From sequence record MT129654.1: a stretch of 64,000 nucleotides of DNA; one strand, written 5' to 3'. Under the pieces are notes generated by a model that worked only from the letters and a program-made list of their open reading frames with translations, did no database searches and was not told the origin of the DNA. This DNA comes from Escherichia phage MN04. This document shows positions 2,927 through 52,190 of this stretch, in pieces (within the stretch, counting starts at the first letter, position 1; the number at the start of each line of letters is the position of its first letter). The position numbers and the translations under genes are program-made.

Positions 2927-4207
2927 TTATGCCTCGTAAATAATCGGAGGAAGTTTAACACCAAGCAGATAAGACATGTTACTCTGACCTGCCATTAAAT
3001 CCATATTAGTTGCGTCTATAACACGAGCTTCTTTATCATCTTTAGCAACGGTATATGGGTTTGCTGAAAGTGCATAACGAACCATCAGAGAAATAGCCGG
3101 TTGTAAACTATCAGGGTCTACAATAACTTTATACGCACCAACATGTTCTTGGTCGTCTAAATCCAGACCTTCGGTATACGGAGCATAGAAAATAGAACCA
3201 ACTACTTCATTACCGCCGTAATCTTCTTTAACGCCTACGATAACATAATCTAAAGGACTATTAACATCACAGAATACAGGCAATCCATTAATCAAATAAC
3301 CGTAAGCAGTTTCTGGGAGCCAAGCTTCATCTTCTGGTTTATGTTTCAACCAACCTGAACCAGCGAGCATAGCAGCAGCACGACTAGATGCGACAACAAA
3401 CGTACCTGAATAAGAAGTGGTTTTCTGAATTTCAGAATTCATCTCACAAACCATTTCATATAATTTACGTGCACTTTCTGGGGCGGAATTATAGGACAAA
3501 TCAATAATACCATTATCAGATACACCAGTTACTTTGTAACGTTTAGATACGGTAATCAAGGATTGTAGTACGTCTTTATTGATTTCATCAGCCATTACAG
3601 TGGCTAAAAGGTCTTCTAAGAACGCAGGGGCGTCGAAGCCATTGGATTCCATGTCTTGGGCTAGTTCTACAGTCAAAGCGGTTTTAAGTTTACGAGACTT
3701 AACAGGTGCGTTCCATTTATTAACCTGGAATACTGCATTACTAATTTCAACATCACCTGCTTCGAATTTCTCTGTGTGAGCCGCATCAGGAACCAGACGA
3801 CATGTTAATGACACCAAACCTTCTTGAAGGGCCTCAGCCAATTCTGTAGCGCTAGTGGATGCGAGTGGGCTTGCTTGAAGAGCCTTATAAACTATGTTCT
3901 GATACTTGAAATATTCACCCTTGGCAATAGCCTGGGCCTTATCTGTGAGTTCTGGGATAGTTTCACGGTCTTTAGAACCAACTTCACCGCCATAAACGGC
4001 ACCAGTTTGGAAGCTAAATTCATTATCAGGAGTAAGATATTTGACACCATACAATGCAGCAATAGGCTGGCTAGTACGTTGTTCAGCAATAATATCACGG
4101 TAAATCAATTTGGTTGTAGCACGGGTCAAAGCAACAAGATTAGGGCGACCCAATGAGTTGCTAGAAGTAGTTGTTGACTCGCGCAGTAATTCGTTAATCT
4201 TTGCCAT
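2927..4207 (-). CDS. gp24: Head vertex protein gp24
   Basis: 426 aa; MAKINELLRESTTT N-terminus and overall match to T4 gp24; adjacent to gp23. Confidence 0.85.
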   Translation of the reverse strand: MAKINELLRESTTTSSNSLGRPNLVALTRATTKLIYRDIIAEQRTSQPIAALYGVKYLTPDNEFSFQTGAVYGGEVGSKDRETIPELTDKAQAIAKGEYFKYQNIVYKALQASPLASTSATELAEALQEGLVSLTCRLVPDAAHTEKFEAGDVEISNAVFQVNKWNAPVKSRKLKTALTVELAQDMESNGFDAPAFLEDLLATVMADEINKDVLQSLITVSKRYKVTGVSDNGIIDLSYNSAPESARKLYEMVCEMNSEIQKTTSYSGTFVVASSRAAAMLAGSGWLKHKPEDEAWLPETAYGYLINGLPVFCDVNSPLDYVIVGVKEDYGGNEVVGSIFYAPYTEGLDLDDQEHVGAYKVIVDPDSLQPAISLMVRYALSANPYTVAKDDKEARVIDATNMDLMAGQSNMSYLLGVKLPPIIYEA

Positions 4208-4235
4208 TGCGCTTTCCTTATTGAGGGTATATGTT

Positions 4236-4243
4236 TATTTATA
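4236..4243 (-). promoter_or_regulatory. Late promoter TATAAATA for gp24
   Basis: TATAAATA on minus strand about 30 nt upstream of gp24 ATG (4207). Confidence 0.6.
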
Positions 4244-4249
4244 AAAGTT

Positions 4250-4290
4250 GTTTACAGCAAGGTTATCACATGTTACTATAGACCTATCAA
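4250..4290 (+). promoter_or_regulatory. Early promoter module (GTTTACA ... TACTATAGACCTATCAA)
   Basis: GTTTACA at 4250; conserved TATAGACCTATCAAAACA box shared with more than 8 other copies in window. Confidence 0.6.
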
Positions 4291-4308
4291 AACATGAGGA
4301 GATTAAAA

Positions 4309-4575
4309 ATGAACAAGTTAAACTTTATTCGTACTACTCTTTCCGCTCTTGATAAAGACATCAAAGCCCTGGTAGAAAAATATGGTTCCAATCCTAACGG
4401 TAATGCAGTGAATGCACTAGTTAAGAAATACGAAGCCATGGCTTATGCTACCGACTTCTGGTGGAACGGTGAATACTCTACCCATACCAAAGACAAATCT
4501 GGTAACTGGCTGAAAATCCAAGAAAATCGTATTGACTTCCGTGATATCATCAACCGTCGTGTTAAGATTGCATAG
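4309..4575 (+). CDS. Hypothetical 88 aa protein, early-promoter driven, inside the late capsid module
   Basis: ATG 4309 with GAGGAG RBS; track ORF 4294 is a 5-codon extension; flanked by promoter and terminator hairpin. Confidence 0.5.
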   Translation: MNKLNFIRTTLSALDKDIKALVEKYGSNPNGNAVNALVKKYEAMAYATDFWWNGEYSTHTKDKSGNWLKIQENRIDFRDIINRRVKIA

Positions 4576-4588
4576 TATAGAAACAAGA

Positions 4589-4610
4589 ATGGGAGACCGA
4601 AGTCTCCCAT
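4589..4610. terminator. Bidirectional terminator hairpin (ATGGGAGAC-CGAA-GTCTCCCAT)
   Basis: 9-bp stem between stop of ORF 4309-4575 and stop of gp23. Confidence 0.55.
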
Positions 4611-4623
4611 AATAAGGTTTATA

Positions 4624-6183
4624 TTAGATACCTTTAACATATACGCGACGGAAGTAACCATTCAGACCGAGGCTGTTAACGATGTCAGGCATACCATTCT
4701 GAATACGTTTGGTAGGTGCCTGAGCAGCTGGGTCAGCGAACGGGTTAATACCGATACCGTAACGAGTTTTGAAGCCCATTACCGGTTGGAAGTTCTTCGG
4801 ATCGGAACCACGCAGCGGAGTCAGCGCAACGTACGGAGCATAGTAGATACCTGCGTCCATTTCGTTGGAACCTTTATAACCGATGGTGAAGTAATCGGAA
4901 CGAGCATACTGGTCGATGTAAACACGATATTTACCACCAAGAACACCGGCAAATACTGCTTTGGTTGTGTCAACGTTGAAACCCTGACCCAGACCTTGAG
5001 CTGCATAACTTACAGAAGTATCAACTGCAGCCAGTACGTTAACTACGTTACGGGAAGCGATGATGAAGTTACCAGCACCACGACCGGTCTGACGAGCGAT
5101 TTCGGCTGCTTCTTTATCAATCTGGAACAGAAGGGCTTTAAAGCTCTCACCGGCCCAACGAGCACCACGGATATCAATCGGGTCCTGGAAGTCAAACACA
5201 CCAGCTTTAGCGCCAACGGTGTTGGTCATACCAGATTTACCAACCTGTGCAGAGTAGTTAATCCAATCGATAACTTCACGGTTGATTTCGAGCATAATTT
5301 CGGTAGCAAGGATACCGGACAGTTCAGCATCTGCATCCATACCGTGTACTGCACGAAGGTCCTGTGCCAGTTCGATAGAGTAGCTTGCTTTCAGCTGACG
5401 AGATTTAGCTTCGATAACTTGTTTGTCGATGCGGAAGCCCATTTCGTTCCACGGGTTATCGGTAGAACCGTTGAAACCTTCCTGAAGTTCGGCGATAGAA
5501 GTAGCCATACCTTCAGCGATTTCAGCCAGCTGACCAGCTTCAACCAGAGCGGTAACAGCAGCATCCAGTTTAGCGGCATCAGTAGCGCCTGCATCAACGG
5601 TTACAGCTTCAACAGCCTGGAAGTGTGCAGAACCGGTAGCTTCGAAGAAGTGAGAATAAATTTTACCAACTTCCAGAACTTTGCTTGCAGCCAGTGCTTC
5701 GAAAGTTTCAGCAGCACCCTGACCAGAGAACATAGCGTTCGGAGCATACATCGGATGGAAAGCTTCTTTAGCGCCTGCAGCGATAGGGTCTTTACCATAT
5801 ACTGCACGCAGTGCAAATACCTGACCGGTAGGGTTATTCAGAGGCTGAACACCACAAATATCAAAAGCAATCAGATGAGGAATAGCACGACGAACCATAC
5901 CCATTACTGCCGGCCCAATCTGAGTTACAGCACCAGAAGTCTGGCCAGCTGCGATATTGGTAGCATCATAACCGTGGTCACCACCAATTTCAGCTTCGGT
6001 CAGGAAAGAACCAAATGCTTCAGAGATTTTTTCATCACGGTATTCCGGGGCAGTCAGGATGTCTTGTTCCTGGTTTTCGAAAATTTTAGCGATGATAGCT
6101 TGTTTAGAAGCACCAACGATTTCAGGAAGAGCTTCGTTTTCCAGCAGAGCGGACCATTTTTGAACTAATGCATTCTTTTTCAT
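4624..6183 (-). CDS. gp23: Major capsid protein gp23
   Basis: 519 aa; N-terminal propeptide and body closely match T4 gp23. Confidence 0.95.
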   Translation of the reverse strand: MKKNALVQKWSALLENEALPEIVGASKQAIIAKIFENQEQDILTAPEYRDEKISEAFGSFLTEAEIGGDHGYDATNIAAGQTSGAVTQIGPAVMGMVRRAIPHLIAFDICGVQPLNNPTGQVFALRAVYGKDPIAAGAKEAFHPMYAPNAMFSGQGAAETFEALAASKVLEVGKIYSHFFEATGSAHFQAVEAVTVDAGATDAAKLDAAVTALVEAGQLAEIAEGMATSIAELQEGFNGSTDNPWNEMGFRIDKQVIEAKSRQLKASYSIELAQDLRAVHGMDADAELSGILATEIMLEINREVIDWINYSAQVGKSGMTNTVGAKAGVFDFQDPIDIRGARWAGESFKALLFQIDKEAAEIARQTGRGAGNFIIASRNVVNVLAAVDTSVSYAAQGLGQGFNVDTTKAVFAGVLGGKYRVYIDQYARSDYFTIGYKGSNEMDAGIYYAPYVALTPLRGSDPKNFQPVMGFKTRYGIGINPFADPAAQAPTKRIQNGMPDIVNSLGLNGYFRRVYVKGI

Positions 6184-6204: not shown

Positions 6205-7020
6205 TTAAGAAATTCGAGATGCTGCGATTGCAGACAGGTCCGCGAAGGACAGGGTAGGCTTAGTGCCTTTTTCTTCAACTGCTTCCGAAATATAATTCAG
6301 TGCTGCAGCATCGTCTTCAGTTTTATTTATAGCGGCTTCGGTGATTGGTTTTTCAACGTCAGTCTGGCCTTTAACCATTTCAACGATAGCGCCAATTTTT
6401 TTACCAAATGCATCGGAATAATCCATGCCTTCTACCAGAGAACTAACTTTTTCTTTCTGAGATTCAGTCAGGTCTTTAGTTGCTTCAGTCAACGCAACTT
6501 CACGCTGTACGTAATTAATATATGCATCACGCTTACCAACTTCTTCGAACAGACGAGCGGTTTCATCTTTCTGCTCTTGGAGTTCTTCTTCCATTTCAGC
6601 AACAACATCCACTGCTTCTTCTGGAACAACCACATTGTGTTCAACAAACAGTTCTTTCATACCCATCAACATGGATTCGAACAGTTCGGCTTTAATACCT
6701 TTATCAACAGCCAGCTGGTTTTCAGCCATCCATTCTTTAGCAACGTGGTCAAGGAAACGACCAGCAGCTTCTTGGATTTTCTTATCAGCTTTTTCTTCAG
6801 CTTCTTCTTTATTTTTCTCAACTTCTTCTTCCGCTTTTTCAGCGATTTTAGCGATGTGAGATTCAGCCAGTTTAACGGCGTGTTGCTTGACGGTAGCTTC
6901 GAATACAGTGCCGAAAGTTTCTTTTGCTTCCGGAGAAATATTAACTGATTCGAAAATACTGTCAAGAGCAACGGAAGCATCAATATTCTGTGCTTCGGCG
7001 ATCAGTTGTTCTTTAAGCAT
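6205..7020 (-). CDS. gp22: Prohead core scaffold protein gp22
   Basis: 271 aa acidic, helical, Glu/Lys-rich; T4 position between 21 and 23. Confidence 0.8.
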   Translation of the reverse strand: MLKEQLIAEAQNIDASVALDSIFESVNISPEAKETFGTVFEATVKQHAVKLAESHIAKIAEKAEEEVEKNKEEAEEKADKKIQEAAGRFLDHVAKEWMAENQLAVDKGIKAELFESMLMGMKELFVEHNVVVPEEAVDVVAEMEEELQEQKDETARLFEEVGKRDAYINYVQREVALTEATKDLTESQKEKVSSLVEGMDYSDAFGKKIGAIVEMVKGQTDVEKPITEAAINKTEDDAAALNYISEAVEEKGTKPTLSFADLSAIAASRIS

Positions 7021-7047: not shown

Positions 7048-7055
7048 TATTTATA
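7048..7055 (-). promoter_or_regulatory. Late promoter TATAAATA for gp22
   Basis: TATAAATA on minus strand overlapping gp21 stop, about 28 nt upstream of gp22 ATG. Confidence 0.55.
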
Positions 7056-7686
7056 ACGCTTTTTTCATGGCCTCTGCGAGAGCCATAAAGGCGTCATCGG
7101 CACTGGTATCGGTATCTACCGTTTGTGATTCTGTAATTTGTTTAGGAGTTACATAAGCATCAGGAGCAGATGGACCCCATACTGCATCAACACCGACGGT
7201 TAATTTATAACCTTCGTTTACACGCTTATATCCTTTATTGGTTTCGGTTAAAGAACCTAGACCACGAGAACTAACACCAGGCACCCAACCGGCTCTAATA
7301 TTAGCAGCTAGTTTATCACCAGGACCATGGTCGCCTTCAATAATACGAGCACGTCCATAAACGTCATTACCTTTCCACCACATATCTTCAATAATAATAG
7401 CGGCTTGCATAGGGTCGACGTTAGCACGAGGCGGATGATTTAATTCTCCTAAAGCTTGTTTAGTAGCAACCTGTTCTGCCATATAATCGGCAACAGCTTT
7501 TTCCAAAATAGGTTTTGGATAAAGGCGTTTATTACGGTTAACCACTTCGGCTTGCATGAATATGCCTTCTATATAAAGGCCCGGGGCAAGTCCAGAATCT
7601 TTTCCATCATGAGATTCCAACATCGGAACCCCATCGATAATTTCACCTGGTTGTCCCCAATGTTCGATGAGCAATTCAGGTTTCAT
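7051..7686 (-). CDS. gp21: Prohead protease gp21
   Basis: 211 aa; size and position match T4 gp21. Confidence 0.85.
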   Translation of the reverse strand: MKPELLIEHWGQPGEIIDGVPMLESHDGKDSGLAPGLYIEGIFMQAEVVNRNKRLYPKPILEKAVADYMAEQVATKQALGELNHPPRANVDPMQAAIIIEDMWWKGNDVYGRARIIEGDHGPGDKLAANIRAGWVPGVSSRGLGSLTETNKGYKRVNEGYKLTVGVDAVWGPSAPDAYVTPKQITESQTVDTDTSADDAFMALAEAMKKAL

Positions 7687-36228: not shown

Positions 36229-37127
<899 letters not shown>

Positions 37128-37208: not shown

Positions 37209-37502
37209 ATGAAAACTTATCAAGAATTTATCAAAGAATCGACAGATTTGTATTCCATTAACAAAGCGGCTATGGCCGATATTAGTAGCGATATTAAAAG
37301 AGCCTTTGGCTCAGGTGATGTTGATAAGGCTCAGCAAATTACTATTACAGTAAATGGTAAACCTGTTAGTATAGCATTCAATACGGTTAAAAAGAAATAT
37401 TATATTAATCTTGGTGATGATATCCACTTTACAAAATATAAGACTTTTTCCGGTCTTACCAAAGATAAAGTAGTTTCTAAAATCAAAGAAATTACAAAAT
37501 AA
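37209..37502 (+). CDS. Internal-protein-like protein (ipI-locus) with capsid targeting sequence
   Basis: N-terminus MKTYQEFIKES; 97 aa; early promoter upstream. Confidence 0.65.
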   Translation: MKTYQEFIKESTDLYSINKAAMADISSDIKRAFGSGDVDKAQQITITVNGKPVSIAFNTVKKKYYINLGDDIHFTKYKTFSGLTKDKVVSKIKEITK

Positions 37503-39323: not shown

Positions 39324-39397
39324 GGCCCTGTAGCTGGACGGTCAAGCGAGCGACTCATAATCGCTGGATGGTGGTTCGATTCCACCCAGGGCCACCA
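39324..39397 (+). tRNA. tRNA-Met (anticodon CAU; could be Ile2 if lysidine-modified)
   Basis: Perfect 7-bp acceptor stem, anticodon stem AGCGA/TCGCT with loop CTCATAA, T-arm GGTGG-TTCGATT-CCACC, encoded CCA. Confidence 0.8.
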
Positions 39398-39401
39398 ATT
39401 T

Positions 39402-39476
39402 GGATGTGTAGCTCAGTGGTAGAGCAGTTGACTGTTAATCAATTGGTCCATGGTTCGAATCCATGCATGTCCGCCA
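39402..39476 (+). tRNA. tRNA-Asn (anticodon GUU)
   Basis: Cloverleaf: D-arm GCTC/GAGC, anticodon loop CTGTTAA, T-arm CATGG-TTCGAAT-CCATG, acceptor with two G-U pairs, CCA. Confidence 0.75.
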
Positions 39477-39480
39477 AATA

Positions 39481-39556
39481 CGAGGCATAGCTCAGAAGGA
39501 AGAGCAACGGTCTTCTAAACCGTAGGTCGTAGGTTCGATCCCTACTGTCTCGACCA
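39481..39556 (+). tRNA. tRNA-Arg (anticodon UCU)
   Basis: Cloverleaf: D-arm GCTC/GAGC, anticodon stem ACGGT/ACCGT loop CTTCTAA, T-arm GTAGG-TTCGATC-CCTAC, CCA. Confidence 0.85.
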
Positions 39557-40495: not shown

Positions 40496-40531
40496 GGCCC
40501 TTCCGAAAGGTTGGGCCTTTTTGTATAAATA
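40496..40531 (+). repeat. Terminator hairpin plus late promoter cassette, copy 2
   Basis: Same 36-bp sequence as 39873-39909 with one fewer T. Confidence 0.7.
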
Positions 40532-40559: not shown

Positions 40560-41177
40560 ATGAAAACTTACAATGAATTTTTGAACGAAAGCGTTCTGAC
40601 TGAAGCCAGCGTGCGCATGACTAAAGATATGTGGCAAGCTGCTTATGATAAAATTTCCGGGACTAAAACCACTACCGAGTTCTTTAAAAACGTTTATGAT
40701 ATGTATGGTTTTGATACTAGTAGCCAGAAAGAATATTACAAAGCTTCCAAAGCTTTTAAAGATATCGTAGCCGGTGGCGCTACTAAGCCTGCTAAACCAG
40801 CTAAAGCTCCTGTTTCTAAACCCGTGGCTCAGACCAAAGTTGCAGCACCGAAACCGACACCTAAAGCAGAGCCTGTAAAAGAAGCTCCTAAACCTAAAAT
40901 CAAGTTCGACACCAGCACTATTGTTAAAAAATATAACCAGCTGGCTTCTTTGGTTTCTGAAATCGAATCCGAAACTAAACAACTCGTTCGAGAATTCAAC
41001 GCCCTTCGTAATGGGCAGCACATTAACAACCTGGATACCCCAGACCTCTATCGTCTTTACCTGACGGTTGAAGGCCTTAAGTATACCCAGCCTATGCACG
41101 AAGAAATTGATAACAAACTTCGTCAAGCCCGCCGCCTTGCAGGTGACGCAGCACAGTTCGAAAAGACCCGTAAATAA
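40560..41177 (+). CDS. Internal-protein-like protein with capsid targeting sequence and Pro/Ala/Lys-rich linker
   Basis: N-terminus MKTYNEFLNES; 'KPAKPAKAPVSKPVAQTKVAAPKPTPKAEPVKEAPKPK' linker; late promoter upstream. Confidence 0.65.
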   Translation: MKTYNEFLNESVLTEASVRMTKDMWQAAYDKISGTKTTTEFFKNVYDMYGFDTSSQKEYYKASKAFKDIVAGGATKPAKPAKAPVSKPVAQTKVAAPKPTPKAEPVKEAPKPKIKFDTSTIVKKYNQLASLVSEIESETKQLVREFNALRNGQHINNLDTPDLYRLYLTVEGLKYTQPMHEEIDNKLRQARRLAGDAAQFEKTRK

Positions 41178-48473: not shown

Positions 48474-48706
48474 GTATTGCAATTTATATTAAATCTGAGT
48501 CGTGTGATTCTTATCTGTATTCCTATGATACGGGTACATCAGAAGAGAAAATCAAAGAAGATTTAGAAAGCGACTTGGATATGTTCCGCCCTATTTCTGA
48601 CTATATGGTCCAAATATCTGATAGTGAAAGTCCGTCAACAGAAACGTGTGTTGAAATTATTATACGAGATATTTTTGAACAATCATGGAAACGAGACGAT
48701 GAGTAA
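48470..48706 (+). CDS. Hypothetical acidic protein
   Basis: 78 aa; ATGA overlap. Confidence 0.4.
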   Translation: MSIAIYIKSESCDSYLYSYDTGTSEEKIKEDLESDLDMFRPISDYMVQISDSESPSTETCVEIIIRDIFEQSWKRDDE

Positions 48707-49145
48707 AGTTAAAGAATTATCCGCAGGTATTTTGTTCATGACCGCCGATAAAGAATTGGTTATGGGTCGTGTAACAGGCTCTCGTAATCCAGAGAACATG
48801 CGTCATAAATGGGACATTCCTAAAGGTCATGTCGAACCAGGCGAAGAGCCTATTCAAGCAGCAATGCGTGAAACCGAAGAAGAGATTGGATTCACGGCAT
48901 ACGACCCTGCGTTCCTGAAAGACCTAGGTGAGTTCAAATATTCAAGCAATAAGAATCTACACCTGTTCTTATATACTGTGCCTGTCGAACACGAGCAGTT
49001 CAAGAATTGCAAATGTACAGCTTACCATACGTTCCCTGATGGTCGTACGATTCCGGAATTCGACGCTTTCGCTTTGATTAAACGTCCGCAATGGGAATAT
49101 GTCATGGGCCCGTCGATGTTTAAGGTTTTAGATTCGCTCTTTTGA
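48699..49145 (+). CDS. nudE: Nudix hydrolase
   Basis: Nudix box 'GHVEPGEEPIQAAMRETEEEIG'; ATG 48699 (track start is upstream extension); directly upstream of e as in T4. Confidence 0.8.
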   Translation: MSKVKELSAGILFMTADKELVMGRVTGSRNPENMRHKWDIPKGHVEPGEEPIQAAMRETEEEIGFTAYDPAFLKDLGEFKYSSNKNLHLFLYTVPVEHEQFKNCKCTAYHTFPDGRTIPEFDAFALIKRPQWEYVMGPSMFKVLDSLF

Positions 49146-49175
49146 TATAAATACCTCCTATAATCAGGAGGTATT

Positions 49176-49664
49176 ATGGATATTTTTGATATGTTACGTC
49201 AAGACGAAGGTCTTGATTTAAATCTTTATAAAGACACTGAAGGTTATTGGACTATTGGTATTGGCCAGTTAGTTACCAAGAACCCATCTAAAGATGTTGC
49301 TCGCGCTGAACTTGATAAGCTTATGGGCCGAGTTTGTAATGGTCGTATTACTATGGCTGAAGCTGAACAACTCTTTAATCGTTCAGTGGAAAATGCTCGT
49401 AGAGCTATAATGCGTAATCCTAAATTGAAACCGGTTTATGATGTGCTGGACGAAGTTCGTCGTTGCGCATTGATTAATATGGTCTTCCAAATGGGCGAAG
49501 CTGGTGTAGCAGGATTTACCAACTCTCTGCGTATGCTCCAACAGAAACGTTGGGATGATGCCGCAGTTAACCTGGCGCAGTCTCGTTGGTACAAGCAAAC
49601 CCCGAATCGTGCCAAGCGTGTTATCGCCACTTTTAAAACAGGTACTTGGGCTGCTTATAGATAA
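49176..49664 (+). CDS. e: Lysozyme (endolysin)
   Basis: 162 aa; '[30 protein letters not shown]...' near-collinear with T4 lysozyme. Confidence 0.95.
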
Positions 49665-49669
49665 AAGCA

Positions 49670-49698
49670 GTTTACATCTCCTAGAATTGTGATAGTAT
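49670..49698 (+). promoter_or_regulatory. Early promoter (GTTTACA ... TAGTAT)
   Basis: GTTTACATCTCCT shared with promoter at 52196. Confidence 0.55.
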
Positions 49699-49748: not shown

Positions 49749-50345
49749 ATGAAAACGTATAAAGAATTTATCACCGAAGCTACTGCAGGAAAGGTCAAAG
49801 GCATTAATAAAGATGAGTGGACCTACCGAGGAAACGGCGTTGACAACCCAGGAAACGGCTTTGACGCTAAAACAGCTCCTATTGAACGGTATTTAGCTAC
49901 AAAAGCTTCCGACTTTAAAGCTTTCGCCTGGGAAGGACTTCGCTGGCGTAACGACCTAAATATTGAAGCTGATGGACTTAAATTTGCTCATATTCAGGAT
50001 GTTGTTGCTAGTAACTTAGACGCAGCTTTTGTTAAAGCTGACAGCGACCTTCGTCGCTGGAATTTAAAACTGTTCTCTAAACAGAAAGGTCCGGTATTTG
50101 TACCTAAAGCAGGTAAATGGACTATTGATAATAAATTGGCTAAAGCAGTCAACTTCGCTGGTCTTGAATTTGCCAAGCATAAATCAGCATGGAAAGGTCT
50201 TGATACAATGGCTTTCCGTAAAGAATTTGCCGATGTTATGACTAAAGCCGGCTTTAAGGCAGAGCTAGATACCTCTAAAGGTACGTTTAAAGACGCTAAT
50301 ATTCAGTACGCTTACGCCGTTGCTAATGCCGCTCGTGGTAATTAA
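49749..50345 (+). CDS. ipIII: Internal protein III-like (capsid targeting sequence)
   Basis: 198 aa; N-terminus MKTYKEFITEA; position after e as T4 ipIII. Confidence 0.7.
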   Translation: MKTYKEFITEATAGKVKGINKDEWTYRGNGVDNPGNGFDAKTAPIERYLATKASDFKAFAWEGLRWRNDLNIEADGLKFAHIQDVVASNLDAAFVKADSDLRRWNLKLFSKQKGPVFVPKAGKWTIDNKLAKAVNFAGLEFAKHKSAWKGLDTMAFRKEFADVMTKAGFKAELDTSKGTFKDANIQYAYAVANAARGN

Positions 50346-50405
50346 TAAAGCCTATACTGACCCTTAAATCCGTGATAGAATACTTCTATCAACTTAAGGA
50401 ATAAT

Positions 50406-50705
50406 ATGAAAACTTATCAAGAATTTATTACAGAAGCCAAAGCTCCTAAAGCATTCCAAATAGGTGTCCAAGGCACCTTAGACCAAGAATATGTTGATGC
50501 TATTGTAGCAAGCCTCGGTAAACAGGGTGTACAAGTGGATTTGGTTGATTTTACTAAAGGTAATACTTTTAATATTGTTACATCTAAAGGCTCTTTAGCT
50601 AAAGTTAAAAAGGCCTTTGGTGTAGCCCAAGCATACGAAATCGACCACTCCGAATTGGAAAATAAAGGTCGCCAGAACACAATTAAAGGTTCTGGTTCTT
50701 TCTAA
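50406..50705 (+). CDS. ipII: Internal protein II-like (capsid targeting sequence)
   Basis: 99 aa (T4 IPII about 100); N-terminus MKTYQEFITEA. Confidence 0.7.
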   Translation: MKTYQEFITEAKAPKAFQIGVQGTLDQEYVDAIVASLGKQGVQVDLVDFTKGNTFNIVTSKGSLAKVKKAFGVAQAYEIDHSELENKGRQNTIKGSGSF

Positions 50706-50801
50706 TAAAGGCAAGCCGGCCCTCTCCTCATGAACGTCGCGTCCTCTGAGTGATGGACCTTTCCCTACCTGTAATAAGGTCGAGCCCAAGTGCGGTAAAG
50801 G

Positions 50802-50830
50802 GTTTACATACGGATACATGGATGAATTAT
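50802..50830 (+). promoter_or_regulatory. Early promoter (GTTTACA, 17 bp, AATTAT)
   Basis: Hexamers with 17-bp spacer, 35 nt upstream of ATG 50866. Confidence 0.5.
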
Positions 50831-50865
50831 GTGCCAAGGAATGGCCCCACAACTAAGAGACAATT

Positions 50866-51411
50866 ATGAAAACGTTTTTAACCGGTAGTTATCTATCCCT
50901 GATGAATGCTTTTGCAAACCATTCTGATGCTAGAGTAGAACACATTTGTAATAGTGGGTTTTATGTACCCGATTCACCAACCCTGTTTAAAGAATGCTGC
51001 ACCTTAAAACTTGACGGCGGACGCCAATCTGGCAAAACAAGGGCAGTATCCATTTTTGCTACAGAATGGTTAGCTAATGGTGGCTCTATTGTTATTTTGT
51101 CTAATAACACGGCGTATGCTAATGTTTCGGCTACTGCAATCCGAAAAGAATATTTTAATAACCATACAGAAAGTATTAAGTACCGTTTGTACACTGATTC
51201 TGTTCGTAGTTTTATTGGTAACACTGCATGCAAATTCCGTGGATTATCACTTTCACGGGTTCTGTATATAATTGATGAGCCTGTTAAAACACCTGATATG
51301 GATAAGATTTATGATGCTCATATAAAGGTAGTCCAGAATTGCTGCCGAGCTCAATGCGTAGAAAGAAATCAAACCGCAAGACCTTTGTTTTTTGTGATAG
51401 GAATGCAATGA
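50866..51411 (+). CDS. P-loop NTPase (hypothetical)
   Basis: 181 aa; Walker A 'GGRQSGKT', Walker B 'LYIIDEP'. Confidence 0.55.
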   Translation: MKTFLTGSYLSLMNAFANHSDARVEHICNSGFYVPDSPTLFKECCTLKLDGGRQSGKTRAVSIFATEWLANGGSIVILSNNTAYANVSATAIRKEYFNNHTESIKYRLYTDSVRSFIGNTACKFRGLSLSRVLYIIDEPVKTPDMDKIYDAHIKVVQNCCRAQCVERNQTARPLFFVIGMQ

Positions 51412-51704: not shown

Positions 51705-51915
51705 ATTGACAATTGAAGGCTCTGATGAAGCCCTGAAGATGTTTGTTGACTGGTTCCACGAACAGGGCGAACAAGGCTTTATGGAATGTTGGGACGGTGG
51801 CCAATGGAATGGTAAAGAAATTGTTTACCCGACTACGTATATCTCTGTTAGTGGTGGATACGATGGCCTTCGTTTTGTAGAATATGATATTGCATCTGAT
51901 GAGGAAGTGAAATGA
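51697..51915 (+). CDS. Hypothetical protein
   Basis: 72 aa; ATG overlaps upstream stop. Confidence 0.45.
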   Translation: MSKLTIEGSDEALKMFVDWFHEQGEQGFMECWDGGQWNGKEIVYPTTYISVSGGYDGLRFVEYDIASDEEVK

Positions 51916-52190
51916 TTGAAGATATCAAGGGTTACAAGCCACATACCGACGATAAAATCAGTAAAGTGAATGCCATTAAAGATGCTGAAGTTCGATTAGG
52001 CTTAATCTTTAAAGCATTAGAAGAAGAATACGTTGAAGCCTTTACATGCTCAGGTGTTGATAAAATGAGTGATGAAGAATTCGACCTCACTCATGAACGT
52101 CTCGCCCAGATTCGTACGGCAATCGAACGCTTGAAAGAAGCCTCCATGTGGGCCTGTCGTTCTGTTTTCCAACCCGAAGAAAAATACTAA
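51912..52190 (+). CDS. Hypothetical protein
   Basis: 92 aa; ATGA overlap. Confidence 0.45.
   Translation: MIEDIKGYKPHTDDKISKVNAIKDAEVRLGLIFKALEEEYVEAFTCSGVDKMSDEEFDLTHERLAQIRTAIERLKEASMWACRSVFQPEEKY

Follow-up and report, generated by a model that had tools for sequence, protein, structure and literature searches.

The window analysed here, a stretch of 64,000 nucleotides from Escherichia phage MN04 (MT129654.1), belongs to a JS98-like Dhakavirus, a T4-like coliphage, and shares 98.3% identity with JS98 over the 1.8 kb around the two genes under study. The ORF listing places a 198-aa reading frame starting with MKTYKEFITEA (MKTYKEFITEATAGK...) at 49749-50345 (+) and a 99-aa reading frame starting with MKTYQEFITEA (MKTYQEFITEAKAPK...) at 50406-50705 (+). 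Their upstream neighbour is the gene for lysozyme e (162 aa; 49176-49664, +), recognised by Pfam Phage_lysozyme (E=6.5e-13) and 74% identical to T4 e, which is preceded by nudE (48696-49145, +) as in T4; a vs.8-like ORF (181 aa; 50866-51411, +) follows. The first-pass annotation, which had described two ORFs of these lengths with these MKTY starts after lysozyme e, is borne out by the exact ORF coordinates and by Pfam. Full-length PHROG matches, of the 198-aa protein to phrog_5341 ('internal virion protein', E=2e-114) and of the 99-aa protein to phrog_2667 ('internal head protein', E=5.4e-43), argue that the pair has not arisen by chance. The order of genes is e - ipIII - ipII - denV - vs.8 in T4, e - ipIII - a 132-aa leader-bearing gene - denV - ip7 - vs.8 in JS98, e - ipIII - a true ipII - denV - ip7 in fDHCT2 and e - ipIII - ip7 - vs.8 in the MN04 window.

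Homology identifies the product of the first gene (198 aa) as a true orthologue of IPIII. Pairwise alignment with T4 IPIII extends over the full length (198 columns) with 86.4% identity (E=7e-126), which upholds the earlier designation of the first gene as IPIII-like; identity to JS98 IpIII is 98.5%, and the body of the protein alone, in a tblastn comparison with T4 IPIII, retains 88% (E=2e-105). The gene lies directly downstream of lysozyme e, as in T4, and besides the full-length homology and the position it has in common with T4 IPIII (phrog_5341) an early-type promoter and the leader with its cleavage motif. The predicted mature IPIII* (188 aa, 20.8 kDa, pI 9.6) resembles its T4 counterpart in size and isoelectric point. 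Differences to T4 IPIII consist of an insertion of 5-6 residues close to where the mature part begins (198 versus 193 aa) and of substitutions at leader positions 5 (K in MN04 versus Q) and 9 (T versus A), both outside the mapped critical positions. An exact-protein look-up retrieved no identical copy of the 198-aa protein on record. A precomputed Pfam assignment, PF26861, exists for JS98 IpIII; our Pfam search gave no meaningful match for either the 198-aa or the 99-aa protein, the searched copy of Pfam being apparently without the IpIII family, and sequence searches of the PDB equally gave no relatives of either protein.

The 99-aa protein is, on the same kind of evidence, an Ip7-family internal head protein and not IPII. 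JS98 gp112, annotated as 'internal head protein', has the identical sequence (100%), and the family of the protein, phrog_2667, also holds T2 Ip7, while T4 IPII belongs to phrog_7857. The body of the protein shares 48% identity with T2 Ip7 (E=2e-23) and was found by tblastn in 283 phage records, several of which name it Ip7 (T2, RB32, myPSH1140 and KaAlpha); equally, the top viral structural match is the 'Ip7 protein' of phage MX01. The predicted mature Ip7* would have 89 aa, 9.5 kDa and a pI of 9.0. Its model, which is of moderate confidence only (pLDDT 74.7), suggests a ferredoxin-like beta-alpha-beta-beta-alpha-beta fold with a C-terminal helix; a fold search with this model returned generic ferredoxin-like matches only, with no hint of a target, and no function of Ip7 was found reported in the literature. 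The likeness to Ip7 (phrog_2667) of T2, RB32, RB15, K3 and vB_EcoM-VR5 extends to body (48% to T2 Ip7), leader and size, whereas the place of the gene differs, being the ipI locus between 57B and tRNA.4 in T2 and RB32 and the interval between denV and vs.8 in Dhakaviruses.

Both proteins begin with a capsid-targeting sequence (CTS), MKTYKEFITE in ipIII (codons 1-10, 49749-49778) and MKTYQEFITE in ip7 (codons 1-10, 50406-50435). In T4, the first 10 residues of IPIII have been found sufficient for the entry of a protein into the core of the prohead, and suppressor mutagenesis of T4 IPIII has assigned targeting to positions 4 and 7 and processing to positions 8 and 10 (PMC9026906). These residues, Y4, F7, I8 and E10, are kept in both IPIII and Ip7, whose genes both encode a capsid-targeting sequence of the T4 type. 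The gp21 motif [LI]xE occurs exactly once per protein, with E10 as its last residue and alanine next to it (I-T-E/A, residues 8-11). The 14 members of the Ip7 family that were compared share only 47-97% identity overall, yet none deviates at residues 1-3 or 6-12 and residue 4 hardly varies; this constancy of the leader in spite of divergence to 47% argues for selection on it. The head machinery on which such a leader would act is encoded in the same 64 kb: the gp21 prohead core serine protease (7051-7686, -; Pfam Peptidase_S77, E=1.1e-103), which is expected to remove the 10-residue leaders, the gp22 scaffolding core protein (6205-7020, -; Pfam T4_CASP, E=2.3e-90), the presumed leader target, and furthermore the genes for the gp23 capsid protein and the gp20 portal. 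Both predicted mature proteins are basic, like T4 IPII* and IPIII*. A literature search retrieved no virion proteomics for Dhakavirus/JS98 or for any Ip7-family protein.

Further leader-bearing ORFs are present elsewhere in the window. The ipI locus contains a 69-aa ORF with a GTG start (36918-37127, +), which adjoins 57B, and a 97-aa ORF starting with MKTYQEFIKES (37209-37502, +; phrog_27873, 'unknown function'), and a 205-aa ORF starting with MKTYNEFLNES (phrog_2280, 'unknown function') is found at 40560-41177 (+), with TATAAATA at 40524-40531, 29 nt upstream. Counting the ORFs at 36918, 37209 and 40560, the window holds five candidate internal proteins. The stretch that separates the ipI locus from the 205-aa ORF contains a cluster of three tRNA genes (Met-CAT, Asn-GTT and Arg-TCT; 39324-39556, +).

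In our interpretation, both genes very probably encode T4-type internal head proteins, each consisting of a 10-residue CTS joined to an unrelated cargo, which would be loaded, trimmed and injected, and which have come to lie side by side through the loss of approximately 900 bp. The leader would direct IPIII and Ip7 into the gp22 scaffolding core while the prohead assembles; the gp21 protease would then cut after Glu10 (Ile-Thr-Glu/Ala) with removal of 10 residues, and the basic mature proteins would remain with the packaged DNA and enter the next host by injection, where IPIII* and Ip7* may serve as first-response counter-defence factors. The roles of leader, cleavage, injection and counter-defence in this proposal come from the T4 literature on IPI, IPII and IPIII. 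T4 IPI* inhibits GmrS/GmrD (PMC3012670), T4 IpII inhibits the fused GmrSD (bioRxiv 10.1101/2023.04.06.535777) and infection of E. coli ECOR17 depends on T4 IPIII, a protein active in the cytoplasm also when its leader is missing (PMC9391042). Close orthology to T4 IPIII suggests a counter-defence role for MN04 IPIII; for Ip7, packaging and counter-defence are proposed by analogy.

On the other hand, IPIII and Ip7 might mainly be structural or DNA-associated head components, engaged in core assembly or charge neutralisation, and not anti-defence effectors. T4 IPIII mutants have been described to show slower head assembly, polyheads and a burst size of ~40%, lysines of internal proteins are reported to contact DNA phosphates, and the basic character of both mature proteins would suit such a role. 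We nevertheless consider it unlikely, as T4 can do without its internal proteins on laboratory hosts (PMC9026906), leaderless cytoplasmic IPIII rescues the infection of ECOR17 (PMC9391042), IPI and IpII have defined restriction-enzyme targets and the fast turnover of cargo bodies at the locus suits an arms race better. Structural and anti-defence roles are not exclusive.

With respect to expression, an exact-match scan located the T4-type late promoter TATAAATA upstream of e (49146-49153, +). No other late-promoter consensus was located close to the two internal protein genes, neither of which has its own; in T4, TATAAATA is equally found only upstream of e within the 8-kb region, and ipIII and ipII are likewise without a late promoter of their own. 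Late synthesis of the internal proteins must therefore rely on read-through from e or on early-type promoters, and late transcription of ipIII and ip7 is likely to proceed by read-through from the e promoter. A hairpin, CCTCC-TATAATC-AGGAGG, which follows TATAAATA (49146-49178, +), holds the Shine-Dalgarno sequence of e. It resembles an arrangement known from T4, where early read-through transcripts sequester the ribosome-binding site of e and late transcripts start inside the hairpin. Upstream of ipIII, a promoter scan identified a T4-early-type sigma-70 promoter (TTTACA-16 nt-TAGTAT with TG before the -10; 49671-49698, +), and with the intergenic sequences side by side this promoter (GTTTACA...TGaTAGTAT) matches the sequence upstream of T4 ipIII. 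The consensus of the T4/PST early-promoter plus stem-loop elements (PeSL) has been given as TTTACW-N17-TAYWAT (PMC4122927). Before ip7, an extended -10 element, TGaTAGAAT (50373-50381, +), was recognised as a promoter remnant, followed by the Shine-Dalgarno sequence AAGGA (50396-50400, +).

The early-type promoter remnant as the sole signal of ip7, which has no late promoter of its own, could be read as the signature of an ordinary early cytoplasmic protein that is not packaged and whose leader-like N-terminus is a recombination scar, all the more as leader-encoding DNA acts as a recombination site in this region (the 132-aa protein ends in ...WMKTYK*, and its gene overlaps the e stop in QL01 and WG01). 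We regard this as improbable: all four functionally mapped leader positions are kept, residues 1-3 and 6-12 stay invariant and residue 4 nearly so within a family diverged to 47%, and T4 IPII and IPIII, which are packaged, show the same promoter layout.

As judged by alignment, the adjacency of ipIII and ip7 is secondary and has come about by a loss of ~900 bp relative to JS98. The 900 bp absent from MN04 (JS98 locus 3762-4661) correspond to the 132-aa internal-protein gene and denV. In the intergenic junction between ipIII and ip7 (50346-50405, +), which was delimited by blastn boundaries and alignment to JS98, window position 50358 corresponds to JS98 locus position 3761 and window position 50364 to 4662, so that the match to JS98 runs to 13 nt past the ipIII stop and resumes at the base after the denV stop. 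Five bases in between, GACCC at 50359-50363, match neither JS98 flank. Together with the following TTAAAT they resemble the spacer after ipIII in T4 (GACGCTTAAAT), and TTAAAT also follows denV in JS98. With the ipII slot defined as the place between ipIII and denV, both the slot gene and denV are gone in MN04, and homologues of denV, IPII, IP132, IP119 and IP85 were found nowhere in the 64 kb; it is because denV is missing that ip7 directly follows ipIII. The resemblance of GACCC and TTAAAT to these spacers makes a microhomology deletion from an ancestor with the order ipIII - slot gene - denV - ip7 the simplest reading, and recombination at the short TTAAAT repeat in the intergenic spacers is the most likely route. 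Recombination between the repeated leader-coding sequences was considered and rejected because both breakpoints fall into spacers, one ~13 nt beyond the stop codon of ipIII and the other ~42 nt ahead of the start codon (ATG) of ip7. The deletion also removed the -35 element (GTTTAC) of the ip7 promoter, which in JS98 is located inside the 3' end of denV, and expression of ip7 may for this reason differ from that in JS98.

Among 50,697 phage records none showed a direct ipIII-ip7 junction, and IMG/VR contained no exact copy of the junction string either. This uniqueness, together with the repeated leader and promoter sequences at the locus, invites the suspicion that the adjacency is an artefact of assembly or cloning. 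Such an origin is nevertheless very unlikely, since the breakpoints fall into unique intergenic sequence outside the repeated leader, the 5-nt stretch and TTAAAT resemble the T4 spacer as would be expected of a real microhomology deletion, and other natural Dhakaviruses gain and lose genes comparably at the same locus. A natural-looking deletion of one internal-protein gene and denV is the sole new feature at the pair, and it makes MN04 an isolate without the UV-repair gene denV (endonuclease V).

The second gene had been called IPII-like in the first-pass annotation, and the position after ipIII had been equated with that of T4 ipII. Neither claim stood up to comparison. Only the first ~12 residues of the 99-aa protein are shared with T4 IPII; with the leaders removed, the two bodies gave no BLASTP alignment at E<=100, and the match to phrog_7857 is confined to residues 1-13 (E=0.011), the protein belonging to phrog_2667 instead. 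The orthologue of the gene follows denV, beside vs.8, in JS98, fDHCT2 and QL01. The idea of an IPII orthologue that occupies the ipII slot of T4 and inhibits fused GmrSD like T4 IpII can practically be dismissed, for the comparable length of the 99-aa protein (99 versus 100 aa), the common leader and the place of the gene directly after ipIII are outweighed by unrelated bodies in different PHROGs (2667 versus 7857), by fDHCT2, which has both a true ipII (91% to T4 IPII) and ip7 on opposite sides of denV, and by the DNA flanking ip7 in the window, which matches the JS98 post-denV spacer. Identity with IPII is refuted at the level of sequence.

The relation to T4 IpII (phrog_7857) comprises the leader (11/12 N-terminal residues), length, basic charge and general locus, whereas the cargo body is unrelated and the PHROG is a different one. 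With no homology of the Ip7 body to IPII and no IPII in the 64 kb, the anti-GmrSD activity is not transferable by homology. The second gene should consequently be named as an Ip7-family internal head protein rather than IPII, and the activity reported for T4 IpII against fused GmrSD must not pass to MN04 ip7 by name. T4 IPI* is alike in the principle of delivery (leader, gp21 trimming and injection) and in being a small compact domain; it differs in having no sequence relation to MN04 Ip7, and in description also the folds are set apart, with two beta-sheets and flanking terminal helices for IPI* and a single ferredoxin-like sheet in the Ip7 model.

A more far-reaching view, possible though doubtful, would see in the Ip7-type protein an injected inhibitor of a host defence system, which would use a small RRM/ACT-like ferredoxin fold and replace both the missing IpII and the missing 132-aa protein; the particular set of five leader-bearing genes might then determine the host range, and the loss of denV might raise UV sensitivity compared to JS98.

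The deletion can be placed in the context of the variability of this region in related phages. In Dhakaviruses the interval from e to vs.8 is a variable tandem array with a common 10-residue leader and cargo families of 132, 119, 99, 100 and 85 aa. The order is e-IP132-ipIII-denV-ip7 in QL01, ABTNLsp5 possesses an extra 119-aa leader-bearing gene, WG01 has an 85-aa leader-bearing gene in place of ip7, and IME281 and EcWhh-1 are without ipIII. These arrangements across Dhakavirus relatives agree with the earlier remark that cargo is swapped between T4-like phages, and they fit the published polymorphism of the internal-protein locus with its promoter/stem-loop-mediated shuffling (PMC4122927). 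The similarity to PeSL and internal-protein locus shuffling (Repoila 1994; Arbiol 2010; Comeau 2014) includes the tandem small genes, each after a TTTAC-type early promoter, and the gains, losses and changes of order between close relatives; the difference is that the MN04 breakpoints, as deduced from the sequences, would lie outside the promoter-stem-loop pair at a 6-7 nt TTAAAT microhomology. The locus is one more natural case of how cargo for injection is exchanged in T4-like phages while the 10-residue address label in front of it stays fixed. At the 3' end of its gene, the 132-aa protein carries leader-like codons (C-terminus ...NWMKTYK*), and the start of IP132, ATGAAAACTTATAA, overlaps the lysozyme stop (..AYENL*) in QL01, WG01 and IME281.

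Both genes of the pair have already been annotated in JS98 and its relatives and are ordinary. The pair leaves current understanding unchanged, and the one item that might change it is an RNA-like element downstream. This unannotated conserved element of 160 nt (50706-50865, +) fills the space between ip7 and vs.8 and contains a 31-nt core, CCTGTAATAAGGTCGAGCCCAAGTGCGGTAA, at 50768-50798 (+), which differs from T4 by one base. By blastn the element is present in 1021 phage records, usually unannotated, with a nearly invariant core. In T4 it is annotated as the first 40 codons of vs.8; the block 50706-50865 would, however, be read in three different frames by T4, JS98 and MN04, so that conservation concerns the nucleotide sequence and not a reading frame or its protein. 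The core is also found in unrelated phages, namely the Vequintavirus MaxTheCat, the 45-kb phage Ivi and a metagenomic phage family of ~46-48 kb, and it is intergenic in MaxTheCat, in Ivi and in two metagenomic loci with ORFs listed. Rfam contained no family for the element even at E<=10, no match was obtained in 5,426 E. coli genomes or in 185,579 GTDB species genomes, and no paper containing the sequence was found in the literature.

Concerning structure, the core is closed by a four-pair helix with one bulged G, in which, over 25 distinct versions, 94% of cells are paired and every pair shows changes on both sides; slid registers of the helix drop to 20-46% paired. Covariation of the whole 12-pair structure amounts to 0.332 versus 0.096 in shuffles, of which 0/500 reach 0.332. 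Pairs inside the core are invariant and hence uninformative either way. A 5' hairpin of differing sequence precedes the core in each lineage; in the 46-48 kb family, reading by eye moreover shows ~130 nt to be enclosed by an outer helix of 8 bp that has compensatory changes. The folding energy of the element as a single sequence is not unusual (z=0.35), minimum free energy folds of individual homologues conflict with one another, and RNAalifold on a longer T4-like alignment detected little covariation beyond the closing helix. The element looks like a candidate for an undescribed structured RNA, or alternatively a single-strand element, of virulent enterobacterial phages.

The gene that follows the element has annotated starts that vary, with 219 aa in T4, 198 aa in JS98 and 181 aa in the window, and a conserved start that reads M(K/R)TFLTG. 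The 181-aa vs.8 homologue has a weak match to a terminase large-subunit ATPase domain (Pfam Terminase_6N, E=5.6e-5), and a 2026 preprint describes T4 vs.8 as terminase-ATPase-like and toxic together with the Avs2 defence sensor. Further downstream, a 92-aa ORF (51912-52190, +) occupies the vs.4 position; for the equivalent 92-aa protein of JS98-like phages, the precomputed Pfam assignment is Acb2_Tad1_hairpin, an anti-CBASS/anti-Thoeris sponge fold.
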